DNA of 64,000 nucleotides from an uncultured virus (IMG/VR IMGVR_UViG_3300028384_001589) (IMGVR_UViG_3300028384_001589); one strand, 5' to 3'; shown: positions 8,142 through 27,107, counted from the first letter of the stretch. The notes: a model not told the origin generated them from the letters alone. Program-made: numbers and translations.

Positions 8142-8753
8142 TTATGAAGGATTCGGAATAAACTCTGGGTTGTGAATGTAGCACACAGTCTTTTTAGGCA
8201 CATATGTAACCAACAACACTTTATCTTTGTCAGGGTGATTGTGTACATGGCCTTTAAATGCACTGTCGTGGGGTTTAACTTGGATAGGATACTCTCCTGC
8301 CCAACCATCAATACCTTGTGACTCTTCTTCTGCTGTACTAAACCTATAAGGCAAACCGTAGTAGTCAGCAACAACTCTAATAGCAACTTCTTCACCTCCC
8401 ATGCCCATATGTGTCTTATTGTACACAACTTCCTTGACATAGTCAATGCACATTTCTTCCGTAATGCCACCTACCTGCATCTTCTTAATCATAGTGTAGA
8501 TCTTTTTACCTGCTTCACTGAGGCCGTCACTGCCATGAGTGTCATTATAATACTTTGTCCACTCACTGAGGGTGCCTTTGATACCGTCACTACGCATCTG
8601 CAACCAGGTGTCTTTGCAATGGCCTACATACTTAGACCTAAAGGCCTGTGAGTTTTGACCTGCAATGTTTAGAATCTGTGTGGCATACTTAGGCCACTCG
8701 CGACGCCTTGGTTCGATTTTTGATTTGAAGTGTTTGCCTGTAAGTTTGATCAT
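8142..8753 (-). CDS. MjaI-family restriction-endonuclease-like protein
   Basis: PKYATQILNIA.QNSQA.R...VG N-terminal motif and EEESQGIDGW...PIQVKP PD-(D/E)xK-like core. Confidence 0.7.
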   Translation of the reverse strand: MIKLTGKHFKSKIEPRRREWPKYATQILNIAGQNSQAFRSKYVGHCKDTWLQMRSDGIKGTLSEWTKYYNDTHGSDGLSEAGKKIYTMIKKMQVGGITEEMCIDYVKEVVYNKTHMGMGGEEVAIRVVADYYGLPYRFSTAEEESQGIDGWAGEYPIQVKPHDSAFKGHVHNHPDKDKVLLVTYVPKKTVCYIHNPEFIPNPS

Positions 8754-9053: not shown

Positions 9054-9680
9054 ATGAGATATCAACTTTACAAGGACGATATTGGTAATTTTCTTATTGT
9101 AGATTCTATGATGGATCAAATCATTTCCAAAGTTAAAAATGAAAAGATTGCTGTGAAGGTTATACAGAAGATCAATAAGAACGACATAAAAGAAAAGAAC
9201 ATTACCAAAAGCCATTGACATTAGATCCATAAGACGCTATTATGTGACTATGGATATTAACTCAAAAGACCCAGGCAAAGGTCATTTCTATGTGAGTATT
9301 TTCAAGAGCGTTCTAAGGCTCGGTGCCAGTTATGGTTTATACATGACAGGTGATATGCTTCTTATGGTTGTGGGAATCTTGCTTGGACTGGCAGAAATAT
9401 TAGGTATCATAGAGGAACTTGTTTAATGGCGTCACTACGGCTCACTATTATTATAGGCTCACTATTACTCCTCACTACAGGATGTTCTTCACTATCAAAG
9501 ACATCTCATAACAATGAATGGTTCATGGGCGAACCTGCAAAGACAGACAGCCTCTCTGAACCCTGTATCAAATGTGGAGAAGATTGGATCTTTATCAATA
9601 ATGAACCGTTCGCCGCTCAAAGGCAGGCTAACCGAGAACAAGGATACGACGGAACAAATTGGGAAGTCGTCCGCTATTAG
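9054..9680 (+). CDS. three small hypothetical ORFs (9054-9218; 9250-9426, membrane; 9426-9680, lipoprotein-like)
   Basis: ORF track; lipobox-like LTTGC in the last ORF. Confidence 0.55.
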
Positions 9681-9796
9681 AATATCTTTAGAAATCTTTC
9701 AATAATTTTTTACCTATTTTGGTAAAAAAGAGGTTGACCTTTTGGCCTTCTGACCTTATACTATTATATAACAGTTAAACAAAAGGAGGGCAAAAT

Positions 9797-10189
9797 ATGT
9801 TCGTAATATATAGAACAGATACAACGGAAATCGTAAGTGAGAAAAGATACTCATACGGTGGACAAATCCATAAAACAGAGGGTCATGCAAAGGCATCACT
9901 CACAAGAATCAAAAAGAAGTTCGCAGAAGGCTTCGCTAATCAAAAACCATATTCAACATTTAGATTTGAAGGTTTAGGCCTGCATGAAAATGGCAAGTCT
10001 GGTAGACAGGCTGAAGGTGAGTTGACTGGTGAACTTGTGGAAATGAAAATTGTCGATCTTGAAACATATAGAAAAGACATTGAAGCACAGGTTGAAGTCA
10101 CTAACATGATGACTGGTAAGAAGTTCAAAGAGAGTGTGAATACTCCGTCTTTCATGTCACCAAGTTCGGAATCATATTGGTCGATGTAA
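9797..10189 (+). CDS. early hypothetical protein
   Basis: Own promoter and GAGGGCA RBS. Confidence 0.8.
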   Translation: MFVIYRTDTTEIVSEKRYSYGGQIHKTEGHAKASLTRIKKKFAEGFANQKPYSTFRFEGLGLHENGKSGRQAEGELTGELVEMKIVDLETYRKDIEAQVEVTNMMTGKKFKESVNTPSFMSPSSESYWSM

Positions 10190-10269
10190 ATTGGTAAAAT
10201 TTAGGGGTTGACTTTTGTCGCCCCTGAATATACTATAATAATATAAACAGGCAACAAAGAGAGGCAAAC

Positions 10270-10779
10270 ATGGCAACAAGGGCAAGAATCGCAATCCAAA
10301 CAGAATCAGGTATCATTGGTGCATATCAGCATTGGGACGGATACCCAGGTGGCTTAGGCTACAATCTAATCGACAATTGGTATAAAGCAGACAAGATCAT
10401 CGACGCTATTAAATTAGGTAATAGTTCCAAGTGGGGTATTATCATTGGCGAAAAGATCGACTTTGATGACAGAAATAATCCAATGCAAGATGTTCAGAAT
10501 GTTTATTACACAAGAGACAGAGGCGAAAAGGATCAAGGTCCTAAGGTCTACAAAGATGAAGCAGATTATTTAGACAAAGGCTTCAACACAGGCGAAGATT
10601 ACATTTACCTCGCAAAGAACACAGGTCAAAAAGACTACCTGGGTAATGAACAGGTCACTTGGTTTTATGCTTCATATGATTCAAAAGAATTCAAACCACT
10701 TGAAGAAGATGCTATCAACGAGCATATTGCAATGTTGAAGCGTCATTTAGAAATGATGAAAGAAAGGAAGGCGGCCTAA
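10270..10779 (+). CDS. early hypothetical protein (MATR.RI...Y.HWDGYP type)
   Basis: Own promoter; GAGGCA RBS. Confidence 0.8.
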   Translation: MATRARIAIQTESGIIGAYQHWDGYPGGLGYNLIDNWYKADKIIDAIKLGNSSKWGIIIGEKIDFDDRNNPMQDVQNVYYTRDRGEKDQGPKVYKDEADYLDKGFNTGEDYIYLAKNTGQKDYLGNEQVTWFYASYDSKEFKPLEEDAINEHIAMLKRHLEMMKERKAA

Positions 10780-11330
10780 TGGGATTAGAAACTCACTCAA
10801 TTGTTGAAATCAAAGAAAGGTTTCATAAGATAGGAAAAGAGGCACCTACCATGTGGTGGGAACACGGTGTTCTTTCAATTGACAATCCGGCAGAAGGTGA
10901 CATTGAAGAAATCAAAGATGTCATGGAGTCGGAGGTGTTGATGCCCGGCTTTGGTGTTGACTTTAATTGTCTGAAAGCCACAACCACAGAACCCTGGGAT
11001 CAATGGGTAATGGATGTGGTAGAAAAGAAGTCTGTATGACAGACATTTTATATTTGATCCTGTTCTTTGCAGGAGTTTATGCGATCCCACTTTGGGCATT
11101 ATGGAAGTGGGACAGAGAGGAACCTAATGGAAAGTGATATTTGGTTAGCGATCAAAGTGATAGCCTGTGGCTTGGCTTTGGTCTATTGCGGTTATATTTT
11201 AGGCCGTGACAAGGGTGTGAAACTTGGTGCTTCAAACGCCATCGATAAACTATGTGAAGGCGGTTATTTGAAGTTCACAAAGATTCGTGGTGACATTGAG
11301 ATCCACAAATTGGACGAAAATAAAGGTTGA
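10779..11330 (+). CDS. two small hypothetical ORFs (10779-11039; about 11127-11330)
   Basis: ORF track; RBS present. Confidence 0.6.
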
Positions 11331-11391
11331 CTTTTAGATCGTCTGAGGCTATACTGTAAGAACAATGAGGCAAAACAAAGGAGCAAAGGCT

Positions 11392-12233
11392 ATGAATAAT
11401 TTGGTAACAAAGGCAAGCGAACTTATCTATCAAATGGATAACGATCAACTCAATCAAATCATTGAGGCGATCAAACTCAAACGAACACATCTTACCAAGC
11501 AGGCGGCACGATCAATGATGGTCGGTGACATCGTAGGCTTCACAGGTAAGTATGGCAAACAGGTTTCAGGCAAGGTCAAAAAGATCGCCCAGAAATATGT
11601 CACAGTTGATTGTGGCATCGATGGTCAATGGCGAGTGCCTGCCAATCAATTAACCAAACTTGGGATTGGCGAAGAAGTATAATGGGACCGTTCTCAGAAA
11701 AGAAACAAATCGAACGAGCAGATAGCATTCAGCGTCTGCTCGATTCGAACCCTCAGTTGGATGACCATATGAAATCTATTTGGTTAAAACACCAGAGGAA
11801 CCTTTGTTTGAATGAGGACGAATATAATAAAAGGGTGAAAGATATCTACACCAATTCTTTCAAACCAAATGGTTATTTCGATTATTTGAATGATTAGAAA
11901 AAAACAATATAAAGATCCAAACACAAAGAAGAATCGTATGAAGAATATCGAAGCAGAAAATTTTCTCGAAGAGAGATGGAAGGTCTTTAATGAAGTAAAG
12001 GCCAAAGGTGGATCTGACATTGCAGGTATCGTAAAGGCTTTGGAAATTGTTCCAAAGATTAATAAGGCTAAATCAAAGAGGAAGGCAAAATGAGAATCTT
12101 AATTGGTATTGGTATTGGCGTGATTGCAACCTATCTATATTTTAATCCAGGTTCGCAGGACGAAGTGATTGATACAATCGTGGGTGGCATCAATGATGGA
12201 GCATCCATTGTGAAAGATCTAACTGACAAATAA
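11392..12233 (+). CDS. four small coupled ORFs (11392-11682, 11682-11897, 11890-12093, 12090-12233)
   Basis: Overlapping stop/start codons downstream of promoter 11327. Confidence 0.65.
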
Positions 12234-12285
12234 ATTGGTTAAATCTTCAATTGACTTTTCTCCTAAAAGAATATAGTTTAAGAAT

Positions 12286-12447
12286 ATGAAATACGGAGAC
12301 GAAAAAACTAAACAGGTGACTGAGTTAGAAGAGGCAATGAAGAAGTTTCTTGCTAAAGGTGGCAAGATAGAGAAACTTCCTGCTTGTATGACCACAGAGG
12401 AATATCAAGCAATGAAGAAAAAGAAAAAAGCCAAATCTAAGAAGTAG
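12286..12447 (+). CDS. SutA RNAP-binding-domain-like small protein (53 aa; missing from ORF track)
   Basis: MKYGDEKTKQVTELEEAMKKFLAKGGKIEKLPAC...; AMxxFLxxGGK(I/V) motif; ATG close to the predicted TSS. Confidence 0.6.
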   Translation: MKYGDEKTKQVTELEEAMKKFLAKGGKIEKLPACMTTEEYQAMKKKKKAKSKK

Positions 12448-12455
12448 AGGTTAAA

Positions 12456-13239
12456 ATGAAATTCACCGACATACCATTCAAGCCTGCTTTTATCAATGAA
12501 GGCCCGCCATTTTATTCAAGTGGCATTCAAGCCTTGGTAAACTTTGATAACGGCATTGAAGTATCGATTGTGATGCATAATGGCTCTTATGGAGGCACCA
12601 AAGGTCTATACGAAATGTTGATTTCGGACAAGGCCGGAAACGGACTGGGTGGCATTCTACCCGGAGTTCAAGAAGATGGTATCATAGGATACCTAACTCC
12701 AGAAAAGGTAGAAGAATTTTTGACAGCACTCAAATATCATAAATTTAATAACCTGGGCGACAATGTCGTTCAACTGAAAAAGGAGACCTTCGATGCCTAA
12801 AGTATTCCATTTTGAATTAGACAGCAATGAAATCTATGAAGTGGTTGCAATGAACTTCAAAGATGCCTGTCTTACTCTCGAAGAAGAATGTCCGGAAGTT
12901 AAACCAACCAACATTCTTTCTATCACAGAACACGCCAACCCTGTTCCAGGCGTAGACACAATCCACTAATAATATAAGGAGACTGAAATGTTCAAAGTAA
13001 AACATGGCGTGGCACCTGACTCAATTTCAAGACGCTATAAGTCAGCCAAATATCCATTTACTGAAATGAAGAAGGCGCAATGGTTTGAAGTGCCTGCTGG
13101 TGAACCCGAAGCAAAGGCAGATAAGTGGGGGCAATGTCCTGCACAGAGATCTGCTCATAGTGCCGGGAGACGTTTAGGTTTCAAATTTCAGACCTATCGC
13201 ACTCAATCAGATAGTGTGGTGATTAAAAGAATCTCTTAA
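12456..13239 (+). CDS. three small hypothetical ORFs (12456-12800, 12793-12969, 12988-13239)
   Basis: RBS before each ORF; contiguous packing. Confidence 0.65.
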
Positions 13240-13245
13240 GACTTT

Positions 13246-13320
13246 TGGGGTGTAGCCAAGCGGTAAGGCAACCGGTTTTGATCCGGTCATGCGGTGGTTC
13301 GAATCCATCCACCCCAGCCA
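13246..13320 (+). tRNA. tRNA-Gln (UUG)
   Basis: Acceptor TGGGGTG/CACCCCA, anticodon arm ACCGG-TTTTGAT-CCGGT, GGTTCGAATCC, encoded CCA. Confidence 0.95.
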
Positions 13321-13430
13321 ACTTTTTTTATAACCTGTTGATTTTGTTGGAGTTTTTTCTGCAAAAAGAGGTTGACCTTTTGAGTGTTTGAGCCTATAAT
13401 GTATGTATAGTTAGAAATTAGGAGGGCACT

Positions 13431-14050
13431 ATGTTAAACACAGATCTTAAATTTACAACCGCAGGCACTATGGATTCATTTGAAAAGCAGATGGATTACC
13501 ATACCACTTATGGCAAGACTTGGGGCGCCAATACTGTTTGGTCAATCTATGACGAAGACGGTTATGGTGAAATCAAGTTTGGCGATAAACTTCCCGAAGA
13601 ACTTGTAGACGGCATTGGCTTTTTAGAATACAATGGCTCATGGTTCAACGACGAAGGCGACTTTGACTACTCAATGAAAGATGTTTTGAAGGCAAAGACC
13701 TGGGGCGACCTTTGGGCACAGATTGATGAAATGATCATGGGAAGTGGTGATCATCATCACATCTACATTGAAGCGATCACTCGTGATCCAAAGCGTTCAA
13801 ACATTCTTCAAATTCACACAGGATCTTAATCATGTTCAAAGATATTCAAGTAGGCGATACAGTTTATTTTTCAACACCACACACCGCAGAGATGAAAGGT
13901 CGTGCGGTAATGAAAGGCCCAGCAGGTTGGGTAGTGAACACAGGCGGACGCCACGGCACTCCCAAGGTGGTTGGTGAATCAAACTTTATCAAACTTCGTA
14001 AGGGTCGCAACCGTAAGCCAGATCATTTAGGAGCGTTCTTAAATGGATAG
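13431..14050 (+). CDS. two early hypothetical ORFs (13431-13829, 13832-14050)
   Basis: Promoter 13372 and GAGGGCA RBS. Confidence 0.75.
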
Positions 14051-14555
14051 ATTAGAAAAGGCCAAACTGTTCTCAAAGGTAGCACATGAGGCCATAGGAC
14101 AGAAAAGAAAATACACAGGAGAGCCATACTTCAATCACCCCCTACGGGTAATGAAGTTGGTGGCTTCTGTCCTACCCGACGATGAGGATGCTCAAATCGT
14201 GGCACTCCTACACGACACGGTTGAGGACACTGATGTGACCTTGGCATTCATTCGTGACGAGTTTGGCCAACGGGTAGAGAGAGGCGTCTTTGCTCTTACG
14301 GACACTCCGACAGTGGAAGGCGGTCCGAACAGAAAAGAACGAAAGAAGATGGACCGTGAGCGTCTTTCTAAGGCAGAAGGTTGGATTCAAACTGTGAAGG
14401 TTGCAGACATGATTGATAACACTTCAACCATCGTTGAAAACGATCCTAACTTCGCAAAGGTTTATCTTGAGGAGAAGCGTCTATTGATGAAGGTTCTCAA
14501 AGATGCTGACCCCAACCTAAAAGAAGATGCCGAAAAGTTCTTGACTTCTGCTTAG
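14043..14555 (+). CDS. HD-domain phosphohydrolase, small alarmone hydrolase (Mesh1/SpoT-HD-like)
   Basis: AH..Q.RK..GEPY..HP..V, ALLHDTVEDT, VKVAD.IDN. Confidence 0.85.
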   Translation: MDRLEKAKLFSKVAHEAIGQKRKYTGEPYFNHPLRVMKLVASVLPDDEDAQIVALLHDTVEDTDVTLAFIRDEFGQRVERGVFALTDTPTVEGGPNRKERKKMDRERLSKAEGWIQTVKVADMIDNTSTIVENDPNFAKVYLEEKRLLMKVLKDADPNLKEDAEKFLTSA

Positions 14556-14600
14556 GCTGAGTTTATACTGTATAGACAATGAGGGATAAGAGGAGCACTC

Positions 14601-15219
14601 ATGTTTAATCAATATTTTGTTTATTATGATGGTCAGTTCGTTGGAACTGTAATGGCCCTGAGCGAAAACTCTGCTCGAGACAAAGGCTGTCAGTTGGTAG
14701 GAGTATCTGCTTCTGCTTATACTGGCAAGGCTCGTAGACTTGTTTCAGTGGTGCGTCGATAATGGCTTTTTATACCTACACCGAAAAACCAATTGGTCAG
14801 TTCGTTGAGAAGGATACCGGAAACTATTTTGAGTATTCCATCAACGACTGCCCAGAGTTTGACGGCAACCGCGAATACTATCCGCACATCGTTTGGGTAG
14901 GTGGCGAAGGTGTCTGCGGTATGCGAGGCTATCGCTATGCCAATGTCAAAAAGACCGTGGCCTACATTATCACAGACGAGGACGAGAATGGTCCTGTGTT
15001 AGAGAGATGGTTCCTTAAAAAGAACACGGAGTATTCGGTATGAAGATTTTGAAAGAAATCACAGAGTGGCCAGATAACACTCCTAACCATACCTACTTCC
15101 TTGAAAAGGATCGTTGTATTGGCTATATCAAAGCCGGCGCTGGCGAGAAAATCATGTTCAAAAAGCCGATGCGTTTTGATAAAAGATATAGAAAGTTCAA
15201 AGAAATTTTGGATACTTAG
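14601..15219 (+). CDS. three small early ORFs (14601-14762, 14762-15043, 15040-15219)
   Basis: Promoter 14541; coupled starts and stops; manual translation. Confidence 0.6.
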
Positions 15220-15281
15220 GGGTTGACTTTACCCACCTCTGAGTATATTATAATAGTATAAACTAAACAAATGAGGGCAAT

Positions 15282-15849
15282 ATGGAATTTTTAGAAATAC
15301 TCGACGAACTAAAAGAAATTCGTCCTACTATCTCAGACGCCAAGGCGGCTACAATCATAGACAAAAGAATCGCTCTGCTTGAAAAAGAAGCCAAAGAGTT
15401 TGATGAATACTGCGACAAGATGTCGGCTAAATGGGAGGGTTATCACGGTGCATAAGACAGTTCATAAAGAATACAAAGACGGACCATTTGATGTGAAGGT
15501 TTGGTATTCACCAGAGTTCGTTCCTATTTCAGATTTATTTGACGATACCGTTAGCGATGTCGAAGAAATGGCTCGCAAGGTAGACATGGGTAATGCATCT
15601 TGGTTTATCGCAGGTGTTGATTATTCCTATGAAGGTCACGAATTTGCTTCTGAATCTTTGGGTGGCAATTACTACGAAGAATGGGAAGAAGATGCCCTTG
15701 ATGAAGGCTTGGGTGGATATCTTGAGGATATGAAACTCACAGCCAAAGATGAGGCACAAAAGAATTTGAATGATTTCCTTATGAAAGTTCAGGTGGACTT
15801 TCCAGGAAAGATTCGACAGGTTTCTGCGTCTTTCGAGACTGTAGAATAA
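15282..15849 (+). CDS. two early ORFs (15282-15455; about 15448-15849)
   Basis: GAGGGCA RBS at 15273; second ORF probably starts at GTG after GGAGG. Confidence 0.6.
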
Positions 15850-16034
15850 GCGATCGTGGGGGTGTCCCCTGGTAGGACTGGTTATAGACCATCGCTATAG
15901 AATAGGAGCCTACAAATTAGAAGCCGGTTAATGTTTTTGGCTCGTTTTACTAACCCTAAAGAAAAACGAGCAATTTTTTGTTTGACTTTACTCGGGGCAG
16001 AGTATAGTATAAAACTATAACAAAGAGAGGGCAT

Positions 16035-16586
16035 ATGAATATAACACGAGAACAAATCAAAAAGGCATTCGTCAGCGACATCAAAGACATTGGCGAAGAA
16101 GCATATAACAATCAAGATTGGTATCAACAGGACGAGCAGAGATTGAGATACATCCTGGCTACCTTTGACGTTGAAGAAAACTTCTATAGAAATTGCATAG
16201 AGTTCAGAGATCACGGTGAATACCTAATCAACAGTGAGCAGAGATTGAGCCTGTTGATGAAAATGACCTATGATGAATTGGTTGACTATGTGAACGAAAA
16301 CGAACTGGAGTGGCTTGGTGACGACTACGATCACATCAACGAATACCTATACACCATAATGAATCTGTGGCAGGACGATGTTGAGTTTGAAGGCGTTGAT
16401 ATGCAGAACCCAGATTGCATGACCATTACCAAAAGAGCAAGAGCATGGAATGTGGATCCGGAAACAGGGTTCAAATCAGAAAACCCATATGAAGCGGCCT
16501 ATCATGTTTTCATGGAATACTGGGACAGTCTTCCTGATGAGGAGAAGCCTAAGATCCACAAAAGACTCGAAGAAATTGGTGTTTAA
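16035..16586 (+). CDS. acidic early hypothetical protein
   Basis: Own promoter and GAGGGCA RBS. Confidence 0.8.
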   Translation: MNITREQIKKAFVSDIKDIGEEAYNNQDWYQQDEQRLRYILATFDVEENFYRNCIEFRDHGEYLINSEQRLSLLMKMTYDELVDYVNENELEWLGDDYDHINEYLYTIMNLWQDDVEFEGVDMQNPDCMTITKRARAWNVDPETGFKSENPYEAAYHVFMEYWDSLPDEEKPKIHKRLEEIGV

Positions 16587-16663
16587 GAGGTTGACTTTGT
16601 CAGTCAGAGACTGTATTATATAAGAACAATAAGGGCACAGACACACAAACAAAGGAGGGCAAT

Positions 16664-17308
16664 ATGCCAAATTGGTGCAATAACACAATCACAATCACAG
16701 GTCCTAAGGACAAGATCACTAAACTTTACTCGGACGCAAAGGCTGAGGGCGGACTGCTTCAAGCGATGCTTCCAATGCCAAAGATACTGGACGATACCAC
16801 TTCGCCTACACCCGAAGACATGGACAAGGTGCAACGAAGCACAATGATCGCACAGACCGGTTTCGATAACTGGTATGACTGGCGTGTGGCCAACTGGGGT
16901 TGCAAGTGGGACGTGGATACAGATGGTCTTGAACTATCCAAAGACGGAACTACTATTTCAGGTTGGTTTGACTCACCCTGGGGACCACCCATTGAGGCCT
17001 ACGCCACATATCTTGACAAGAACCAAGACTGCTCCGTTGAATCACACTATGAAGAAGGTGGCATGGATTTCGCAGGTCACTGGCATGATGGTGCAGATGA
17101 CTTTCTTGAAGGCATTTCAGATTATGCTCGTAAGGTTGTTCGAGGCCAAGATTCGGGTTCAACACTCTATGATTACCTCGATGGTGAATTGGATCTCACA
17201 GAAGCACGTCGTGAATACCTTGAAGAAGAACTTGATGCTGATGCACAAAAGGTCCACGATTTTGTGGTAGAAGGCAAGGCTGTAAACGGCAAGATGGAGA
17301 CTGCATAA
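16664..17308 (+). CDS. DUF1281/YubB (Api92-like) ferredoxin-fold protein
   Basis: MPNWCNN, NWYDWRVANWGCKWD, FDSPWGPP, YEEGGMDFAG. Confidence 0.8.
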   Translation: MPNWCNNTITITGPKDKITKLYSDAKAEGGLLQAMLPMPKILDDTTSPTPEDMDKVQRSTMIAQTGFDNWYDWRVANWGCKWDVDTDGLELSKDGTTISGWFDSPWGPPIEAYATYLDKNQDCSVESHYEEGGMDFAGHWHDGADDFLEGISDYARKVVRGQDSGSTLYDYLDGELDLTEARREYLEEELDADAQKVHDFVVEGKAVNGKMETA

Positions 17309-17478
17309 TGACTGTCAAGGTAGTTCTTTCACCCGACAACACCGAAGAAATGCCCGACGATCTCTACGACTATTTGGTAGAACAGTTCGTGGCCAAAGCA
17401 CAGGAGATGGGTCACGACATAGTGAACACCCGCAAGACCCTGGACAATTGGCGTATTGAATGCGAGATTGTGGAATAG
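17308..17478 (+). CDS. small hypothetical protein
   Basis: TAATG coupling; GGAG RBS; manual translation. Confidence 0.55.
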   Translation: MTVKVVLSPDNTEEMPDDLYDYLVEQFVAKAQEMGHDIVNTRKTLDNWRIECEIVE

Positions 17479-17483
17479 TTCAA

Positions 17484-17565
17484 TGATCCAATCAGTGGTG
17501 CTGAGCCAAGACTAAGGGGGCTCGGATGAGCAGGGTTGCTCTAACTTCCGCCACTGATCGGGTCA
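17484..17565 (+). ncRNA. candidate three-way-junction RNA
   Basis: Closing stem with 16 of 17 positions paired, plus two internal hairpins; G-U pairs favour the + strand. Confidence 0.5.
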
Positions 17566-17604
17566 CCAATCATAAATATACTCATATAATGAAGGAGAAT
17601 ATCA

Positions 17605-18246
17605 ATGGTTGACAGAGCAGGTCCTAAATCAGAGTCATACAAAAAGACACGTCGACTCACCCGAGAAGAACTACTACGACGAGGCCCAGTGCCTACCTAT
17701 TTTAATGGCGAGTGGTTGGGCGGAGACCCTGAAGGTGACGCTGTCTACTCAGAAATCTACTGTGAAGATCCCTATCAACTATACCACGATTGGCCGTTTC
17801 GTTGCGAAGGCGTGGTGTTTCACAATCGTGATGATATGCTGAATTTTGCCTGGGAACTGAGCAGAAATCAGGACAGAGACGTATGGACACAGACCCCCAC
17901 AGGCTTTCCTGAAAAGCAGAATTGGTGGTGTGAAGAACGACTGCAGAGAGATGGTGAATGGAACGAATGGGCCAAGAAGGATCTTGAACGCAGAGCCAAT
18001 TTAGCGAACGAAACCGATCAACCCACAATAGGCAACAAGGTTGACCCACCCTCAAGAGCAGAAGCACAGGGACGCAGAAAAGCCTACTGGGATCCCCGAC
18101 TAAAGCGAACAGTGATCACAGACGAGTTTGAGTCAGAGTCAATCTCTCCCAATAGAAAGCGTCAGATCCAGCATCTAAAGAGCAAGGGCATAGACCCCAT
18201 AGAGCCCGACACCACACAAGAACACAAGGCGCCAAACTCATCATAG
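17605..18246 (+). CDS. hypothetical protein
   Basis: TAAATA upstream; AAGGAG RBS. Confidence 0.75.
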   Translation: MVDRAGPKSESYKKTRRLTREELLRRGPVPTYFNGEWLGGDPEGDAVYSEIYCEDPYQLYHDWPFRCEGVVFHNRDDMLNFAWELSRNQDRDVWTQTPTGFPEKQNWWCEERLQRDGEWNEWAKKDLERRANLANETDQPTIGNKVDPPSRAEAQGRRKAYWDPRLKRTVITDEFESESISPNRKRQIQHLKSKGIDPIEPDTTQEHKAPNSS

Positions 18247-19094
18247 TAGCAGACGAAGTCGGTCCGCAAAATTTTTCACGCGACAGCGGAGCGGTAAATT
18301 TTCTAACTCGCGAAGCGAGTAGCGGCCGCGAGCGATTTCCCCTAAGGAGCAGAAACCAACTCGCAGAATTGGCTGGAATACCCGCTTATGAGGTGCACAT
18401 AGAAGAAACACACAATGACGATGGAACAGTGGATGTTCACATAGCCACACACGAGATCAGCAAGGATAATCACACAAAACCTAATTTGACCCTTATATCT
18501 AACGATAACATGGATAAGGACAATTAGAACCCTATAAGCACCGTAGAGCAGAGTGTAGAGGTTCTCGTTGCTATATGACGCTCGTATACAGTCTTAGAAC
18601 CCTAATATGCTCGTTGACTCGCATATAGTTCACTTCGCTCACTATACACAGTCTAACACACATAGTGGGAGGCCCCGCTGTAAGGGTCTACACCATAGGC
18701 CCCGCTGTAGGTTTTTAGGTAGATTGGTGTGGGAGAATGGCGAGAGAAGGGTGGTAGAGTATTTGAACTATGCCTCTCGTCACCTCAGTCAATCAAATTT
18801 TTTTGGAACACAAATCCACACAATTCTACACTCTTCCACACGATTCTGCCACATCTGACCACCATTGTAGGCACCTTAGAAGCACCATAAAACACCCTGT
18901 TTTCACCATTATTCCACGGTGTCGCTCGAGGAGCAAAAGGGATGCCTCGCTCCCACAACCGTGCTCTACCATACAGTATAGGGTCTGGAGTTCGAACTGA
19001 TCTTATACAGTAATCTTCTCTATACACTATGTGAGAACCACTGACCCTATACTGTATACGAGTGTTGGACCGCCCCTTATTACTACACTATGGG

Positions 19095-19228
19095 TCACTA
19101 CCTCACTGCTCACTATGTCACTATCGCTATACGGGTCACTGCCTTTGTGCCTTTGGGTCTCACTATGATTTGGTTCACTGCAGGGAGGTCGGTGGCGGTC
19201 ACTAAGGAGATCTTTGGAGCGATCACTG
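19095..19228 (+). repeat. nine direct TCACT(A/G) hexamers
   Basis: At 19095, 19103, 19110, 19118, 19136, 19160, 19175, 19199, 19223. Confidence 0.75.
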
Positions 19229-19230
19229 CC

Positions 19231-19323
19231 TGTGTATAAGTCTGTAGATAACCTGTGGACAACCTGTGGACAACCTGTGGATAACTCGGGAGAGAGGGTG
19301 GGTTGTGGATAACCTGTGGATAA
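19231..19323 (-). promoter_or_regulatory. array of seven co-oriented DnaA boxes
   Basis: Minus-strand TTATACACA (19231), TTATCTACA (19243), TTGTCCACA (19254, 19265), TTATCCACA (19276, 19304, 19315); mostly 11-bp spacing. Confidence 0.88.
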
Positions 19324-19389
19324 CTTCTGAGGTGGTTGCCTCGTGAGAGTTCTTTTGGCGTAAGTCTTTGAAATCATTGAGGTTTTTGG

Positions 19390-19515
19390 TGCCACAGGTG
19401 TTCTTTCTGTATCGGGCCCTGAACCTTCAGGCACCTGGGGTGTATTGAACTCCGGTATCTGGCCCTCTTGCTTAACGTTCCCGGCGGTTTGGACTTGCCC
19501 TGTGTCCCTTATTGT
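19390..19515 (-). ncRNA. candidate small RNA 1 (or origin-priming transcript)
   Basis: Consensus promoter (-35 at 19545-50, -10 at 19522-27) with no credible ORF downstream; several hairpins. Confidence 0.5.
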
Positions 19516-19655
19516 TCTTACAGTATATGATCATTCATTCAAAAGGTCAACCAAAAAAGATGATTATTTTTGAATTTTTTTTGGCATTTAGGGGTTGACT
19601 TTTGGTTGGGGTGGTGCTATAGTATAAACATAATATGAAAACGAGGGCACAGAAC

Positions 19656-20171
19656 ATGATGGAATTGATGGCACACATTAAGGCGGAGAATGCAAAGACC
19701 CAGGCTTGGGTTGCAGAGGACCCCAAGAATCGTTGGGCGGGTCTTTACCCAGAGGATGAGGCTCATTGGGTAGAGCGTGGGATCACCACGGTTGAGGACC
19801 TCGAGCGTGACGAGTTGGCCACTTATATATACGAGGGCCACAAGGACGCTTTTGGTGTCAAGGGTCGCCACTACGACTTTGAGGCTATGAGCCTTGAGGA
19901 TCTGCGTTCAGAGGCGGACTATATTAGCCGTTCGGTCAAGGAGCAGATGGAGTTGGAGGCCAACATGGAGGCCGAGGCTGTGGCTCGTTATGAGGCTTCC
20001 ATTAGGGAGTATATGCAGATGGGTGCTGAGGATCGTGACACAGCGATTCGTTGGTTGCTTCAAGCGGAGGGTCTTGAGAACGAGTATGACCCATCCTATG
20101 TATGCTATTCTCTGGGGCTACCCTACGAGATGGCCAAGGAATTTGAGGCGCACATGAAGAGCGCCGCGTAA
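19656..20171 (+). CDS. early hypothetical protein
   Basis: Start moved to the ATG after GAGGGCA (19643). Confidence 0.8.
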   Translation: MMELMAHIKAENAKTQAWVAEDPKNRWAGLYPEDEAHWVERGITTVEDLERDELATYIYEGHKDAFGVKGRHYDFEAMSLEDLRSEADYISRSVKEQMELEANMEAEAVARYEASIREYMQMGAEDRDTAIRWLLQAEGLENEYDPSYVCYSLGLPYEMAKEFEAHMKSAA

Positions 20172-20217
20172 CGGGTAGAGGAGTAGAAACCCTGTTAGAC
20201 CTGACACCTATCACATA

Positions 20218-20354
20218 AGATCAGGCGGGAAAGGGGAGGCGCCCTCGAGAAAGGCCTCCCACCATTCGTGGTGATACCTCACAGAAAATCAGGTCGTGTT
20301 GGGTGTTTGTCTCCGACCCAGGATTTCAGCCGCCCTAACCTTTTTTCTTATTAT
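20218..20354 (-). ncRNA. candidate small RNA 2 (multibranch)
   Basis: Promoter -35 at 20384-89, -10 at 20361-66; closing stem 20218-28/20330-41; G-U pairs favour the minus strand; no ORF. Confidence 0.6.
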
Positions 20355-20479
20355 GCTTATAGTATATGATCTTCTATCCAAAATGTCAACCAAAATCTTC
20401 ATCTTTTTTTGGTAAAAAAATGGTTGACCTTTGATGGTTTTGGTGCTATAGTATAAGAATAATAAGGAGGGCAACACAT

Positions 20480-20933
20480 ATGTCAAAAACAAAAAACTAC
20501 TTAATGGACCAGGAAGAAGAGTTCTACACTATAGCAGAACAGCAGATCAAAGGCTGTGAACACATAGACGAGTTCAAGACAGCAATGGAGCCATTCTCCA
20601 GCATGGTGAGTTGGAACTTTGATCCGCAGAGTGCGGCTTGGGAATTTGACGATTTGATCTCAGAGTTATGGTCAGAATACTGGAGCAAATACGCGGCCTA
20701 AATTAGGGGTTGACAAACCAATATTTTGGTTGTATAGTATAAACATAAACTAAAACAAAGAGGGCAAAATGTTAGAACTAATTGGATTTATCGCAATCGC
20801 TTACATCATCTACAAGTTGGCACCTGTGGTGCTGGAAGTAGGTTTCAAGTTTGCTATCATCTGCATAGGCTTGGTAGCGTTCTTATTCATGGTGAGCATC
20901 TTTATGAGCACCTGGACTGTGTGGGTATCTTAA
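20480..20933 (+). CDS. two small early ORFs (20480-20701; 20769-20933, membrane)
   Basis: Each has its own promoter and GAGGGCA RBS. Confidence 0.7.
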
Positions 20934-21589
20934 TGAGAAAGATACTTGCTATAGCGGCCATGGCCACAATGATAGGCCAATCCGCGACTGCAGGGGCCAA
21001 AGAGATGGGACCCCTGAAGGTCACAATGACAGGCCAGGCTGAGGCGATATTCCTAAGCACCATAGAGGATGCTGGGATCAACAAACAGAATCAGGTCGAT
21101 GAGATCATGTGTCTTGCACAGAACATCTACTTCGAAGCGAGAGCAGAAAGTATATCAGGCAAGGCAGGGGTGGCCAACGTCACCAAGAACAGGGTTGAGG
21201 ATAGTAGATGGCCCGACACATACTGCAAAGTCGTAGGAGACGGTCCAGTGCGTGAATCATGGAAAACTAAACAACACGCCGACCTTCCAGACAGTGAGAG
21301 GGTCTACTATCCCAGAAAGCACAGATGCCAGTTCAGTTGGTATTGTGATGGCGTCAAGGACATCATCTGGGCCAACAAGATCAAGACGGGTCAGACCATA
21401 GAGGCCAATGCAAGGGCCTGGCAGGACTCTGTGAATGTAGCACTATGGACCACGGGTTGGAGTGATATCGTAATCAAGGACAACACACGAGGAGCCGTGT
21501 TCTACTATGCTCACCACCTTGTTTACCCTACATGGGCCGATGAGAAGACCTATATTGGGGTTCTGGGCAACCATACTTTTATGAAATAA
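20933..21589 (+). CDS. cell wall hydrolase, SleB/Hydrolase_2 family
   Basis: CLAQNIYFEARAE, VANVTKNRV...WPDT.C.VV, CQFSWYCDG, GNHTF; signal peptide. Confidence 0.9.
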   Translation: MRKILAIAAMATMIGQSATAGAKEMGPLKVTMTGQAEAIFLSTIEDAGINKQNQVDEIMCLAQNIYFEARAESISGKAGVANVTKNRVEDSRWPDTYCKVVGDGPVRESWKTKQHADLPDSERVYYPRKHRCQFSWYCDGVKDIIWANKIKTGQTIEANARAWQDSVNVALWTTGWSDIVIKDNTRGAVFYYAHHLVYPTWADEKTYIGVLGNHTFMK

Positions 21590-21653
21590 AATGGTTGACA
21601 AATTGGATAGTAGGTGCTATTATATAAACATAAACTAAAAAAGCGAGGGCAAT

Positions 21654-22708
21654 ATGCGTAGACAGATTAAATTAGGAACCAAGGTCAACAGCAGATTTGG
21701 TGAGGCCAAGGTACAATCGATCGCTCTGTGTGAACAAGAGGGCGACAAGGAAGGTATCCCAATCAAGGCTGTTTGGCTGGATTTGAAAGACCGTTGTGTG
21801 TTCGATCTGGACAATGGGCATTGGTGTTATGGGTATCAGGTAACTGTAGAATGATATCATTCTTCACAGCCGTAGGCTTATTTTGGACCTGCTGGTTTTG
21901 GATGGAGATCCCCATGCTGGTCAACACCCACCCAGATGCAGAGAACCTGTGGGTGTATATCTGGACTTTTACTGCTGTGACCCACACCTGTTGGCTTGGT
22001 TGGTGGTGGGGAAGAGCCCCATAATATGGGCGAAAATAAATGGTTGACTTTTGAATATTTTGGTGCTATTATATACACATAATGAAACAAAAGAAAGAGG
22101 GCAATATGTTTAGAAAAATTTCAACAGGGTTTGGTGCACTGTGTTTGATGATGGGTATCATCGTTATGGCTGGTTCAGCAGGCGACTGTGATGGCAAATG
22201 TATGGAGGTGGCTAATACACTTCCTGAAATGTTGATGCTGGCTGGCGTGGGTGTGATCCTATGTATCAGCGGAGCGTTCTTTATCGTGGTAGGTCGTAGT
22301 GAATAAGATCCTCCCTATCATAATCGCTGGCATGATGCTGACAGGCTGTGGCACTATGACAGCAAAGGATTCTATCAAAATGATTAACCTGGCCAAGAAT
22401 GCAAGTATGATCACCCAGGCGGGAGTCTCAGAAGAGATCACCAACTGTGTGAAAGATGTGTTCGACCCAGGCAACAGAGGGAGTGGTTGCTAATGAAATA
22501 TCTACTTCTATCTGCACTGTTCTCCCTGAATGTGGAGTATGCTGACCTAAGCACCTGCGAACAAGCACTTGAACAGGTCAAGCAACACGACAAGCAGGCC
22601 ATCTGTATCCCGGCAGGCAAAGACAAGGGTGATCAGATGTTTGACAAGTTTTTGGGCATGGTCCAACAATTACAGAAATTGGACAACCAAAAGACACAAA
22701 CTGATTGA
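21654..22708 (+). CDS. five small early ORFs (21654-21854, 21851-22024, 22106-22306, 22299-22493, 22493-22708), several membrane or lipoprotein-like
   Basis: Promoters 21595 and 22044 with GAGGGCA RBS; coupled starts. Confidence 0.6.
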
Positions 22709-22773
22709 CATCTTGGCAGTTTGATGTTATTATATAAACACAATGATGAATAGGCTAAAGGAGGCTTAATATT

Positions 22774-23100
22774 ATGGCTACAAATAAAACTTATACCGTT
22801 GCTGGCACAAGTTCATTCAATGGCAAAACCAAAGTAAGGTTTGCTCAGGACTATGTGTCAAGGTTCAAAATCTTGAACAAGAATGGTCACTCAGACATTG
22901 AGTTGATCGAACTTGATGGTGCAATGAGCAAAGCAGATATCTGTAAGTTCCTAATGGGACATGAGAAGTTCCAATCGGAAGCACAACAGTCTGCGATTTC
23001 AGAGTTCGTTGTAAGAAACGTCAAGAAGGCGGACACTACTCCTGCTCAACCAACTGCTGAAGTAGAGCAGACAGTTGAAGCAGAATTAGAAACTGCGTAA
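22774..23100 (+). CDS. hypothetical phage protein
   Basis: Own promoter; AGGAGG RBS. Confidence 0.8.
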   Translation: MATNKTYTVAGTSSFNGKTKVRFAQDYVSRFKILNKNGHSDIELIELDGAMSKADICKFLMGHEKFQSEAQQSAISEFVVRNVKKADTTPAQPTAEVEQTVEAELETA

Positions 23101-23183
23101 TCAAATTACACCAAGGGCGGTTGACAAAGCCGCCCGGGTGTGTTAATATAAGACATCATTAGAAACAGTCACAGGAGTCACCA

Positions 23184-23264
23184 GTGACAATCATCAGAAG
23201 CAAGAAGAAGACGTTCCAATTGAGAAACGCCGCGGCATTTAGACGCAAGGGAGATCCGAACTAA
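23184..23264 (+). CDS. 26-aa basic peptide in the tRNA transcript leader
   Basis: AGGAG then GTG start; MTIIRSKKKTFQLRNAAAFRRKGDPN. Confidence 0.45.
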   Translation: MTIIRSKKKTFQLRNAAAFRRKGDPN

Positions 23265-23270
23265 GAATTC

Positions 23271-23357
23271 GCTCCGGTGGCGGAATAGGTAGACGCAACG
23301 GACTTAAAATCCGTTATCGGTTACGGTGTGTGGGTTCGAGTCCCTCCCGGAGCACCA
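23271..23357 (+). tRNA. tRNA-Leu (UAA)
   Basis: GCTCCGG/CCGGAGC acceptor, ACGGA-CTTAAAA-TCCGT, long variable arm, CCA. Confidence 0.95.
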
Positions 23358-23361
23358 TCAT

Positions 23362-23438
<77 letters not shown>

Positions 23439-23583
23439 AACACCTCGGGAGAGTGGCGCAGAGACCACTCGTGCATAGTGATAGACGGCGGGGATCCTAT
23501 GCAATTTTTTTTAAAATAATGGTTGACTTTTGGTTTCAAAGACTGTATAGTGTAACTATAAACTAAAAAATAGAGAGGGCAAA

Positions 23584-24109
23584 ATGGCAACAGATCTTAA
23601 ATCACACGCACAGGACGTATCGTTAACAAGGTTTTGGGGCGGAGAGAAACGCGGAGTATGCGTTCAAGTTACAGCAAAGAGAGCGGATTCACAACCTACG
23701 GGTTTATTACCCGACACTGGTTTTGAAACGGTCCAATTGACACGAGCACAGGCGGCGGCATTGGCGGCTGACTTGTTGGACTTTGCACAGAGCAGAGAAC
23801 AGGAAGAATACGGAAATTAGGGGTTGACATTTGAAGATGTTGACTGTATACTGTAAGAACAATTAAACAAACGAGGGCAATATGAAACTTAAAATCATCG
23901 GATCAAACCAAACTGAAATCACAACTGCACGTGGCAACAAGGTTCTCTACTCATATGAGACTCCAGTAGCGGCCAAGACAGAGCAGGGCATTTTCAGAAC
24001 TTCAACCAAATACAGTGTAACCACTACCAAGCACATCAACTCATACCTGGGCGGTCCAAACGAAGGCATTGTCGCGGACCAAAAGTTTTTTGACAATTTG
24101 GTAGTTTAG
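23584..24109 (+). CDS. two small early ORFs (23584-23820, 23882-24109)
   Basis: Each has its own promoter and GAGGGCA RBS. Confidence 0.75.
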
Positions 24110-24167
24110 GGGTTGACTTATGCATTCAATGAGTTTATTATTAATATAACAATTAGGAGGGCAACTT

Positions 24168-25175
24168 ATGCAAAAGATTAAAATCGTAGAGGGTACATAC
24201 AAAATCAGAGGCAAAGACGTGGATCTTGGCGGTATGGTATTTCCCCTTGTAGAAGAATTTAAAGTAGGCGCCAACGGTGGCTACGTAACAGTCGATGGAA
24301 CTGCTGTAGCAGGCTTCCCGGATCGTAACATCAAGATCAAGGTTGATAGCGCCGACTGCTACACTGCTGTTAACGCAAACACCAAGATCACACAGCGTGA
24401 AGAATCAGACGAAGAGACCATTGAGCGTCTTAGAGAGCGATTCAGTATACTTGAAGACATGACCCGTGCTTGTAAGAAGGGTGATGTACGAGCAATGATC
24501 GTAAGTGGCCCTCCAGGCGTAGGTAAATCGTTTGGTGTAGAGAAAGTGCTGGGTAAGCACGACTTGGTGGCCACACTGGGTGAACGACCTGCTAAGTATC
24601 AGGTTGTCAAGGGCGCGATGAGTGCAATTGGTCTCTACTGTAAACTGTACAACTACGCAGACAAAGACAATGTACTTGTGTTTGATGACTGTGACTCAGT
24701 ACTAATGGATGACCTGAGTTTGAACATCCTCAAAGCGGCTCTTGATTCAAAGAAGACAAGAACCATTCACTGGAACACAGACTCATTCAAGTTGCGTAAC
24801 GAGGGTGTGCCGGATTCATTCGAGTTCAAAGGTTCGGCGATCTTTATCACCAACATCAAATTCGACAACGTTAAAAGCAAGAAGTTGCGAGATCACCTCG
24901 AAGCACTTGAATCACGTTGTCACTATATTGACCTCACAATTGATACGGAGAGGGAGAAGATGCTACGTATCAAGCAGATCGTGCAAGACGGTATGCTTAG
25001 TGAGTATGACTTTACCGAAGAACAGCATGAGGCGGTTGTGGACTTCATTGATATTAATAAGTCCAAACTACGTGAACTGAGTTTACGTACTGTTCTAAAG
25101 GTAGCCGACTTGGCCAAAGCGTTCCCTGCTAATTGGGAAGCAATGGCTGAGAGTACAGTGTTACAAAGAGCATAG
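24168..25175 (+). CDS. AAA+ family ATPase
   Basis: Walker A GPPGVGKS, Walker B VLVFDDCD, sensor IFITN, arginine-finger-like ALESR. Confidence 0.9.
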   Translation: MQKIKIVEGTYKIRGKDVDLGGMVFPLVEEFKVGANGGYVTVDGTAVAGFPDRNIKIKVDSADCYTAVNANTKITQREESDEETIERLRERFSILEDMTRACKKGDVRAMIVSGPPGVGKSFGVEKVLGKHDLVATLGERPAKYQVVKGAMSAIGLYCKLYNYADKDNVLVFDDCDSVLMDDLSLNILKAALDSKKTRTIHWNTDSFKLRNEGVPDSFEFKGSAIFITNIKFDNVKSKKLRDHLEALESRCHYIDLTIDTEREKMLRIKQIVQDGMLSEYDFTEEQHEAVVDFIDINKSKLRELSLRTVLKVADLAKAFPANWEAMAESTVLQRA

Positions 25176-25233
25176 CCCTCACGCTCCAACACTGTATTCG
25201 AACCCCTGGGATGTGCCCTCGTCCTGGGGGTTC
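25151..25233 (+). ncRNA. twin hairpin with GCCCUC in both loops (candidate antisense RNA)
   Basis: Stems 25151-62/25188-99 (with inner GAGC/GCTC) and 25200-12/25221-33; loops ATAGCCCTCAC and GTGCCCTC. Confidence 0.6.
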
Positions 25234-25333
25234 CCCTTGACAGAACGCCCACAAAATAAGTGGAAATTAGGGGTTGACATTTTGGTATTCAGAGCCTATA
25301 ATGTATATACACACTAAGGAAAAGAGGGCAAAT

Positions 25334-25669
25334 ATGCAAGACACATACGTAGTAAACAAGTTCAAGGCAGGCGAAGTACACTTTCAACGTGGCGCCGCAG
25401 GTTGGTTGTTTGACTCAGGTGAGTTCCGTCCACTAATGGATGACGCCATGGAGCAACTGCTCGAAGCAGGCTGTGTTGACCAAGAGTGCGTTGAAGAAAC
25501 AGCACGTCAGAGAGATGTGTACGTGGAACAGTCACTGAAAGAGTACGTTGAAGCACAGCGTAACAGAACCCCAGAGCAGATCGCAGAAGAGCGTTTTGAA
25601 GCAAGGGCGGCTATGGGACCAGGCGTTGAAATGGTCAACATCATAACAGGAGAACGATACACAACCTAA
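25334..25669 (+). CDS. early hypothetical protein
   Basis: Start moved to the ATG after GAGGGCA (25324). Confidence 0.75.
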   Translation: MQDTYVVNKFKAGEVHFQRGAAGWLFDSGEFRPLMDDAMEQLLEAGCVDQECVEETARQRDVYVEQSLKEYVEAQRNRTPEQIAEERFEARAAMGPGVEMVNIITGERYTT

Positions 25670-25752
25670 GGGTTGTGTATTTTTTGGTTGACCTTTGCGT
25701 CAACTGACAGTATAGTAATACTATAAACAATTAACAAAGAGGGCAAAACACT

Positions 25753-26100
25753 ATGAACATTCAAGCAATACACACTGAAGCAACCGCAAAAGCACAGGAC
25801 GCTGTGGCAGACTTCTTAACAAGATGGAATGAGCAGACTGGCGGCAACGAGTATGGAGAGCCAATGTACTGTGGCTTTGCGTGGGTTGATGTCAGTGTTG
25901 AAAGAACCAACTCACGGGAAGCCAAACTACTGGAGAGCATAGGCTTCAAGAAGAGTTACAGACCCAAGACCATGACACTGTGGGATCCTGCTAACCACAG
26001 AGGACAGAGCATGGACTGTAAAGAGCATGGTGCTCAGGCATATGCAGAAGTGCTAAGGGCACATGGGTTCAAAGCATACATGGGTAGCAGAGCAGACTAA
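25753..26100 (+). CDS. early hypothetical protein
   Basis: Own promoter and GAGGGCA RBS. Confidence 0.8.
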   Translation: MNIQAIHTEATAKAQDAVADFLTRWNEQTGGNEYGEPMYCGFAWVDVSVERTNSREAKLLESIGFKKSYRPKTMTLWDPANHRGQSMDCKEHGAQAYAEVLRAHGFKAYMGSRAD

Positions 26101-26125
26101 CTCCTACAAATAATAAACAGGAAAG

Positions 26126-26154
26126 GGCCGGTGGAGACATCGGCCTTTTTTTTT
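26126..26154 (+). terminator. intrinsic terminator ending the early region
   Basis: GGCCGGTG-GAGA-CATCGGCC followed by T9. Confidence 0.9.
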
Positions 26155-26277
26155 GGCGGGGGGTCGAGGCAATATAAAAAAATAAAAATATTTTTCGGGG
26201 CGAGGGGCATAGTAAACAAATTTGACAACTGTCAAAATTTTTGGGCAGGGGCCGCCAAATCACCACCTCAAAGACCT

Positions 26278-26434
26278 AAGTACTTCTTTTTATTTTTTCG
26301 CGGTCTTCACTATATGGGCACAGGACCCTTTTCACAGTATTCACAGTTAGCACAGCAAAAGAGCCTGGTAGAATGGTCAAGTACTTCTCAAAATTTTTAC
26401 GCACACACTCATTTTGGGTTGCAGGACCCTTTTC
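26278..26434 (+). repeat. degenerate direct repeat, 101-bp period
   Basis: AAGTACTTCT-N33-CAGGACCCTTTTC at 26278-26333 and 26379-26434. Confidence 0.75.
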
Positions 26435-27107
26435 GAGTGTAAATACTATATGCACTGTGTAGTACACTCAAAACGTGGTAGACCTCAGCAGTACTGTGTA
26501 TACGATGCACAGGGTCGCATAGTAATCATCACAACCTCTAAACGCATAGCACTTGGATATAAGCATGAAAGGACATAATCACTACTGCATATACACACGT
26601 GACTTTGATCGCTGTCTTGGCTTGTTCAAGGAGTTTGCTACGCATGACATCAACTACGAAGCACACATCAATAGAACACGAAGATCATGCCACAGGCTCA
26701 TAGCATTACACTCGTATACAAGAAAGCACAACGCAACTTTGTAGTAGAAGACATCCACACGCACTGTGCTTGTGTAGAACTACTGTGTAACTATCAGATA
26801 CACTGTAGCCAGTCAAGTTCGGATACACTCGTGTTTGAATCAGCACAGGACGCATTTAGAGCATACTTTTATTTGAGTGGTCATGACCTCTACACACCCT
26901 GTCTGCGTGAAACTACAGACCCATAGAACACAGTAGTATACAGTTAGTACAGTTAGAAGCCAAGGGGCAAAAATCTCTTTACCGATCCGTGCTTACCGCA
27001 GTGCTTCGCACGTTCTAAAAAACCGCTTTACCGATTCTCGGCTACAATCTGGCGCTGAACCGCTTCGCGGCATAAGTACACTATAGCGGTCAACAACGGG
27101 AGGGCGT

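Follow-up and report, generated by a model that had tools for sequence, protein, structure and literature searches.

Shut-off of early translation by lytic phages is known mainly from the proteins RegB and RegA of phage T4. The RegB endoribonuclease and the RegA repressor read GGAG or AU-rich sites (PMC3014915). In Alphaproteobacteria, the cuckoo/CcsR small RNAs (sRNAs) consist of two to four adjacent hairpins with one anti-Shine-Dalgarno (anti-SD)-like motif per loop and highly variable stems, and CcsR1-4 are cut from a 3′ untranslated region (UTR) by RNase E (PMC4615179, PMC8034643). A C-rich motif in the 3′ UTR of the Staphylococcus aureus icaR message pairs with the SD sequence of the same message and blocks initiation (PMC3868564). 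In the PeSL cassettes of T4-type phages, a sigma70 promoter-SD unit is repeated ahead of each small early gene of a variable region (PMC2839356), and the Pseudomonas phage PA5oct uses the host polymerase and TTGAC/TATAATA promoters and has abundant noncoding RNAs (ncRNAs) in its early region (PMC7318152). Here we discuss a stretch of 64,000 nucleotides (nt), hereafter the window, from the uncultured virus IMGVR_UViG_3300028384_001589, in which early genes carry a GAGGGCA motif (the tag) at their SD sequence, and the gene for an early AAA+ ATPase ends in a predicted hairpin element whose loops hold the complement. A predicted multi-loop RNA from the 3′ end of the ATPase transcript probably masks the tagged early ribosome-binding sites (RBSs) in trans as a class, its own message included.

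The phage element resembles the cuckoo/CcsR sRNAs in its series of predicted hairpins with variable stems and a conserved loop motif. However, its loops carry GCCCUC or UUCGCUCC, whereas those of cuckoo/CcsR carry CCUCCUCCC; since the CCUCCUCCC loop is absent, the element is not a member of that family. It is also phage-encoded and complements the private tag that the same phage has on its early genes, and the gene upstream is an AAA ATPase here and DUF1127 there. With icaR it shares the logic of pairing between a 3′ UTR and an SD sequence, but icaR has one motif for one message, while the phage has 2-5 loops, ~15 tagged genes, and a tag-loop pair that switches between lineages. As with RegB and RegA, early genes would be controlled post-transcriptionally through their translation initiation regions; in contrast to T4, the proposed reader is an RNA. 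The early block has a PeSL-like layout, with 19 promoter-first genes within 9.7-25.8 kb in an array of small genes, each with a sigma70 promoter and an SD sequence. Its promoter spacers have diverged, however, and the available part of the PeSL description has neither a complementary RNA nor a private SD extension (PMC2839356). Masking of SD sequences by a multi-loop antisense RNA is a known kind of control; what stands out here is a tag that is private to the phage, co-evolves, and marks an entire temporal class. No phage RNA that pairs with the SD sequences of its own early genes turned up in the literature, with most subscription journals outside the scope of that search.

The window belongs to a contig of 129,144 bp, which corresponds to 36% of the genome of an uncultured marine jumbo phage (CheckV). 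Its SSB and AAA ATPase indicate kinship to PA5oct, Phosso, Atu_ph07, and RaK2-like phages, and sequences of relatives are as long as 358-364 kb. The closest cultured relatives are PA5oct and RaK2-like jumbo phages (ATPase 43%, SSB 47-59%). In a 31-kb stretch of PA5oct there is no hairpin array behind the ATPase gene, and GAGGGC is found in none of 18 leaders viewed.

The tag of the early block

In what follows, genes are labeled early on the basis of promoter type and gene content, and promoter-first if they come first after a sigma70-type promoter. The tag occurs exactly 15 times on the plus strand of the window, and the contig holds no further plus-strand copy. Two copies lie on the minus strand, at 25220 and 109290, the former being the complement inside the candidate RNA. 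The original prediction had placed 15 copies 1-7 nt before an ATG, each marking the first gene after a sigma70-type promoter; all 15 coordinates were confirmed (Table 1), and TTGAC-N17-TAnnnT is found upstream of every one. While the gap between tag and ATG is confined to 1-7 nt, that between the -10 box and the tag ranges over 14-35 nt. Hence, the position of the tag follows the start codon rather than the promoter. Dinucleotide shuffles of 9400-26200 gave a mean of 1.67 copies and a maximum of 5 in 100 shuffles, versus the 15 observed.

GAGGGC precedes 14 of the 18 automatically called promoter-first early genes, or 15 of 19 when the gene at 15273 is counted, which an ORF (open reading frame)-overlap filter had removed from the automated start-site test. 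The remaining four carry the variant tags GAGAGGCA, GGAGCA, GAGGAGCA, and GGAGGC. The motif is far from equally frequent before non-early genes: it is found before none of 21 internal early genes and before one of 137 genes outside the block (1/158 other starts). The promoter spacers have a mean identity of 42% (maximum 81%). Recent duplication alone therefore does not account for the fixed tag, and cassette duplication is disfavored as its whole cause. The tag sites are predicted to be accessible, with opening costs of 0.2-4.7 kcal/mol. As to the suggestion that the GCA part is superfluous for anti-SD pairing, it holds for C(A), while the third G could wobble-pair (G-U) with the 16S rRNA end in a shifted register.

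Sigma70-type promoters on the minus strand, at 20390 and 19551, are directed opposite to the early block and lead into noncoding stretches. Each of these stretches holds one GAGGGC on the minus strand (at 20246 and 19467, respectively), and part of the transcript predicted from 20390 recurs in the relative L018. They are possible sponges of the antisense RNA.

Loop complements behind the ATPase gene

GCCCTC, the reverse complement of GAGGGC, recurs directly 3′ of the ATPase stop codon. The predicted fold of 25148-25245 has two hairpins (-43.7 kcal/mol, z -5.6), with the complements in the predicted loops at 25175-25180 and 25214-25220, and hairpin 2 has a terminator-like position. Among the three readers put forward in the original prediction (an sRNA, an RNA-binding protein, or a sequence-specific RNase), the RNA is thus the one with evidence. 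Over the element, Rfam gave no match (17000-28500 searched, E≤1). Over the final 250 nt of the coding sequence, no conserved internal promoter was found, and an internal or late promoter for the RNA was rejected (TAAATA in 0/67 and a sigma70-like promoter in 1/67 coding ends). The RNA is therefore predicted to represent the 3′ part of the ATPase transcript. The ATPase has homologues in PA5oct and T4-like phages (32-43% identity); its predicted fold is generic AAA+ (RFC, ORC, NorQ, RuvB; template-modeling score ≤0.47) with no hint of RNA binding. GCUCC was considered as a second seed in the window element and rejected, as these bases form the 3′ arm of hairpin 1 and pair with the coding end.

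With the ATPase as anchor, four sets of 80 loci were taken from IMG/VR, each set being the best 80 of 86-591 matches. Sets 1-3 comprise 178 locus records, the window included, of which 100 are non-redundant; the fourth set of 80 loci gave 55. GCCCTC is present in the element behind the ATPase gene in 66 of the 100 loci (175 copies). Of the 131 copies that are separated from the stop codon by >12 nt, 129 lie in predicted hairpin loops, and the copies nearer to it lie mostly within the hairpin 1 loop. The motif has a predicted unpaired probability of 0.87 relative to a background of 0.46. Each element has 2-5 predicted hairpins, the stems of which differ from phage to phage. In hairpin 1, a synonymous Thr site pairs with its partner in 50/57 loci through compensated combinations (24 T-A, 17 A-T, 4 G-T), compared with a mean of 24.7 and a maximum of 37 in 2000 shuffles uncorrected for kinship; these are counts from a script and not from an alignment. 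The stems contain 80 G-U versus 29 A-C pairs, and a U-tract follows the last loop in 55 of 75 elements. The excess of G-U pairs together with the U-tracts favors a plus-strand RNA. In one locus (L052), the element is displaced by an insertion of ~650 nt (2190-2900) between the ATPase stop codon and the hairpin array.

The 66 loci with GCCCTC have leaders with GAGGG (407/552) and GAGGGC (346/552), and only two of these leaders have GGAGCG. The motif said to be invariant is so in the window; among relatives, near-fixation is confined to GAGGG(C). Nine other loci have UUCGCUCC loops and no GCCCTC; all 15 non-stop copies are in predicted loops, and the 76 leaders have GGAGC in 65 cases, GGAGCG in 41, and GAGGG in none. 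In L171 (L240), 6/10 leaders have AGCGAGG and the element contains CCTCGCT, while four close relatives of it in the fourth set have leaders of both kinds, GGAGCG and AGCGAGG, together with the complement of each. The fourth set also holds a further 43 loci with at least two GGAGC leaders (GGAGCG 199/347, GAGGGC 0). In this clade, genes sit directly after the ATPase gene, which at first looked like counter-evidence; TCGCTCC was found 500-1100 nt behind the ATPase gene in 38 of the 40 evaluable loci (three were too short), mostly at ~800-935 nt, at the operon end and ahead of a terminator-like hairpin. Two or three genes, or 800+ nt, separate the ATPase gene from the downstream loop in the freshwater clade. 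L262 and L318 have mixed SD sequences and no such loops, and L249 has partly GGGGCA leaders and no callable element. The element thus appears to offer what an SD-masking RNA would need, i.e., a seed, unpaired by folding prediction, that is complementary to the SD region of the target and covaries with it. The idea that the conserved extension implies a second reader is likewise supported by loop complements that switch with the leader motif between lineages.

Predicted pairing, possible mechanism, and rival readers of the tag

Several features of the leaders suggest a reader other than the ribosome. An extra AGGGCA upstream of the SD zone is present in 47 of 524 distinct leaders, compared with 0.6 in shuffled ones. 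AGGGC is kept without GAGG or GGAG in 51/540 leaders, something that a ribosome would not select. In the RNA, the two bases 5′ of CCCUC are TG in 99 and AG in 54 cases, and the complements of the bases that follow GAGGG in the leaders have the same ranking (TG 275, AG 55). Duplexes predicted between leaders and their own loops average -14.0 kcal/mol; for loops of the other class the mean is -7.7, and for the canonical anti-SD it is -7.3 kcal/mol. For the window, the 7-mer duplex has -12.0 kcal/mol versus -6.1 to -12.3 for the anti-SD, with both partners predicted to be accessible; tag-loop pairing is predicted to beat the anti-SD in 10 of the 15 leaders and to be about equal in five. Four bacterial genomes of 2.6-4.5 Mb contain 14-52 copies of GAGGGCA-ATG each, unfiltered for true starts, so that the full tag would touch few host genes.

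In several relatives (e.g., L048, L050, L053, and L054), GGAGGG leaders are often followed by TCC, and these could fold a mini-hairpin over GGA.

A possible course of events is as follows. Host sigma70 RNA polymerase would make all early messages, and ribosomes would read GAGG through the normal anti-SD. During the early phase, the ATPase message would accumulate, either as such or as a stable fragment processed from its 3′ end. The loops would then pair over 6-7 nt with the SD sequence and the spacer behind it. Such a duplex would end 1-7 nt from the AUG, keep the 30S subunit off, and perhaps hasten decay. As the ATPase leader is also tagged, the circuit would limit itself and act as a timer that does the job of RegB and RegA in T4. 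More speculatively, translation of the ATPase may gate the hairpin 1 loop, because hairpin 1 overlaps the stop codon.

Other data weigh against masking by this RNA. The bases 3′ of CCCUC mismatch the commonest leader bases, which limits pairing to 6-7 nt. For the GGAGCG class, the predicted energies are -12.2 (own loops), -10.2 (other class), and -7.9 kcal/mol (anti-SD), with a small gap between the first two. On a quick, unrooted ATPase tree of 96 rows (sets 1-3, four short rows omitted), tag and loop states need four changes, and the covariation thus rests on ~2-3 lineage events; the shuffle tests take no account of kinship among loci. Whole-element minimum free energies gave no strand preference (41/75), and hairpin 2 of the window lacks a long U-tract. 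Near the ATPase gene of L297 and L312, which have GGAGCA leaders, no loop was found. A lineage of 23 loci (L064-L080, L113-L142 range) has neither GAGGG leaders nor the element; in the loci viewed, there are as many as three AGGCA repeats in its ATPase leader, and no UGCC loop array matching AGGCA was found in G001 (41% complete) or in four loci. RNA-library contigs span 25035-25522 and 24962-25283; they are assembled, blind to strand, ends, and level, and derive from relatives (words shared with the window at most 0.17). Complementarity, loop position, and covariation are evident from sequence and predicted folds, while pairing in the cell, repression, processing, use of Hfq, and timing are inferred.

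Covariation is also blind to the sign of the effect, and several loops together with double tags would suit a scaffold. This raises the alternative that a multivalent RNA gathers, stabilizes, or shields early messages, e.g., from a nuclease that destroys host mRNA. We regard such a positive or protective role as unlikely: the paired stretch covers the SD sequence and ends close to the AUG, the predicted pairing matches or exceeds that of the anti-SD in the window leaders, and SD pairing blocks initiation in icaR (PMC3868564).

A protein could be the reader instead, either a RegB-like RNase or a RegA/CsrA-like binder that recognizes GGCA or GAGGGC, with hairpins that are separate or bind otherwise. 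T4 provides the precedent (PMC3014915), the contig is only 36% complete, and in the element-less lineage AGGCA is repeated in 14/31 leaders versus 0.5 in shuffled ones with no loop array found. On the other hand, a decoy for a protein that binds single strands would have to present the tag and not the complement, the switches of loop and tag coincide, and the RegB and RegA profiles (PF10715, PF01818) match none of five records, one of them complete, in a search in which no positive control rang. Taken together, we find a protein reader quite unlikely.

If the action of the element were confined to the ATPase leader of its own message in cis, as in icaR, the tag could have spread through recombination of promoter cassettes, as in PeSL. 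The element does sit on a tagged message, cassette shuffling is known (PMC2839356), and the RNA-library contigs of relatives join different promoters, which is suggestive only. The spacers have nevertheless diverged while the tag is fixed, an element with 2-5 loops would serve a single cis target, and the loop of the freshwater clade lies far downstream of the ATPase gene; a cis-only role is therefore decidedly unlikely.

Since tag and loop share one word at the duplex level and differ in its orientation, GAGGGC might also be a double-stranded DNA operator bound by a repressor in either orientation, with the array as DNA decoy. This is highly unlikely given that tag spacing is kept relative to the ATG and not to the promoter, and that the complements are in predicted loops on stems with a G-U bias and compensatory changes. 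It is just as hard to credit that the tag is an ordinary strong SD sequence homogenized by drift and gene conversion, with plain terminators as hairpins. GAGG does pair with the canonical anti-SD, and GAGGGCA-ATG is present in the four bacterial genomes mentioned above (16S end canonical-type or undetermined), but chance cannot place an exact complement in 129/131 loops and switch it with the tag. A variant host anti-SD complementary to GAGGGC has a negligible chance, even though tag and canonical SD, when aligned, differ at just two positions: a 16S end containing GCCCTC has no match in 185,579 GTDB species genomes, many of them assemblies without 16S ends, or in JGI metagenome contigs, the pattern control recovered canonical 16S ends in four of five genomes, and the tag is not in use on the non-early genes of the phage.

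Other features of the early block and meaning for jumbo phages

The G+C content of the early block is ~40-48% versus 32-40% in the rest. Its features are listed in Table 1.

Table 1. Coordinates of the tag, its variants, and the candidate RNAs in the window.
Feature	Position	Strand	Remarks
GAGGGCA tag (SD core and extension)	9786-9792	+	gene 9797-10189
Variant tag GAGAGGCA	10259-10266	+	promoter-first early gene
Variant tag GGAGCA	11380		promoter-first early gene
GAGGGCA tag	13422-13428	+	gene 13431-13829
Variant tag GAGGAGCA	14590		promoter-first early gene
GAGGGCA tag	15273-15279	+	gene 15282-15455
GAGGGCA tag	16027-16033	+	gene 16035-16586
Double-motif leader	16632-16661	+	AGGGCA 16632-16637, GAGGGCA 16655-16661; gene 16664-17308
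GAGGGCA tag	19643-19649	+	gene start 19656
Candidate conserved noncoding RNA	20178-20262	+	one GCCCUC loop (20241-20246); membership in system uncertain
GAGGGCA tag	20467-20473	+	gene 20480-20701
GAGGGCA tag	20760-20766	+	gene 20769-20933
GAGGGCA tag	21645-21651	+	gene 21654-21854
GAGGGCA tag	22097-22103	+	gene start 22106
Variant tag GGAGGC	22760		promoter-first early gene
GAGGGCA tag	23575-23581	+	gene 23584-23820
GAGGGCA tag	23873-23879	+	gene 23882-24109
ATPase promoter (sigma70-type) and tag	24113-24163	+	-35 24113, -10 24136, tag 24157-24163; predicted antisense-RNA source promoter
Early AAA+ ATPase gene	24168-25175	+	335 aa, phrog_1250; RNA element at 3′ end
Predicted hairpin 1	25151-25199	+	5′ arm = last ~7 codons; loop = stop codon and GCCCUC (25175-25180)
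Predicted hairpin 2	25200-25233	+	14-bp stem; UGCCCUC 25214-25220 in and closing loop
GAGGGCA tag	25324-25330	+	gene start 25334
GAGGGCA tag	25739-25745	+	gene 25753-26100

The RNA candidate at 20178-20262 is conserved, ~85 nt long, and without a match in Rfam. Homologues are found in four contigs (L322, L323, L324, and L328), in three of which they adjoin tRNA genes; tagged promoter leaders are present in none of the four, which are 5-30% complete. Deep RNA-library contigs at 20215-20261 (from one library) represent a related ncRNA and not the ATPase element. This RNA is a possible second copy of the element.

A long intergenic gap of the early block contains, at 19231-19323, seven 9-mers in one orientation that resemble what we take to be the DnaA-box consensus. 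By the same presumed consensus, similar clusters of four to seven are found in five relatives (L026, L031, L034, L041, and L042). The cluster is a possible replication origin or DnaA decoy. The early block further has genes for tRNA-Gln (13246-13320), tRNA-Leu (23271-23357), and tRNA-Arg (23362-23438). In L250-L319, a small Cys/His-rich ORF of ~80 aa lies directly after the ATPase gene and is followed by a membrane protein; this ORF presumably resembles the GcrA C-terminal domain.

Elsewhere in the window are genes for a hemA-like pyridoxal phosphate enzyme (3794-4996), an AlgH/DUF179 protein (7041-7601), and an MjaI-family endonuclease (8142-8753). The cellular matches of the hemA-like gene are mostly in Alphaproteobacteria (46-60%), and by sequence similarity the gene points to that class as the host side. 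This host assignment was dropped, as in our judgment the top matches look like phage contigs binned into unrelated genomes.

Tentatively, and with considerable doubt, the findings can be extended to an RNA-only address code on the RBSs of a jumbo phage family. The multi-loop RNA would time the end of the early phase and silence the early genes of co-infecting relatives with the same tag, and GAGGGC, GGAGCG, and GCGAGG would mark RNA-defined immunity groups. If masking by the ATPase-derived RNA is correct, there would be an RNA route to stop early translation, in which a temporal class is labeled by a few bases beside the SD sequence and a single phage transcript reads the label, in jumbo phages of both marine and freshwater origin. 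Naturally occurring pairs of tag and loop would then offer a ready compensatory test without phage culture, a sequence marker for early genes of uncultured phages, and possibly a compact, orthogonal translation switch.

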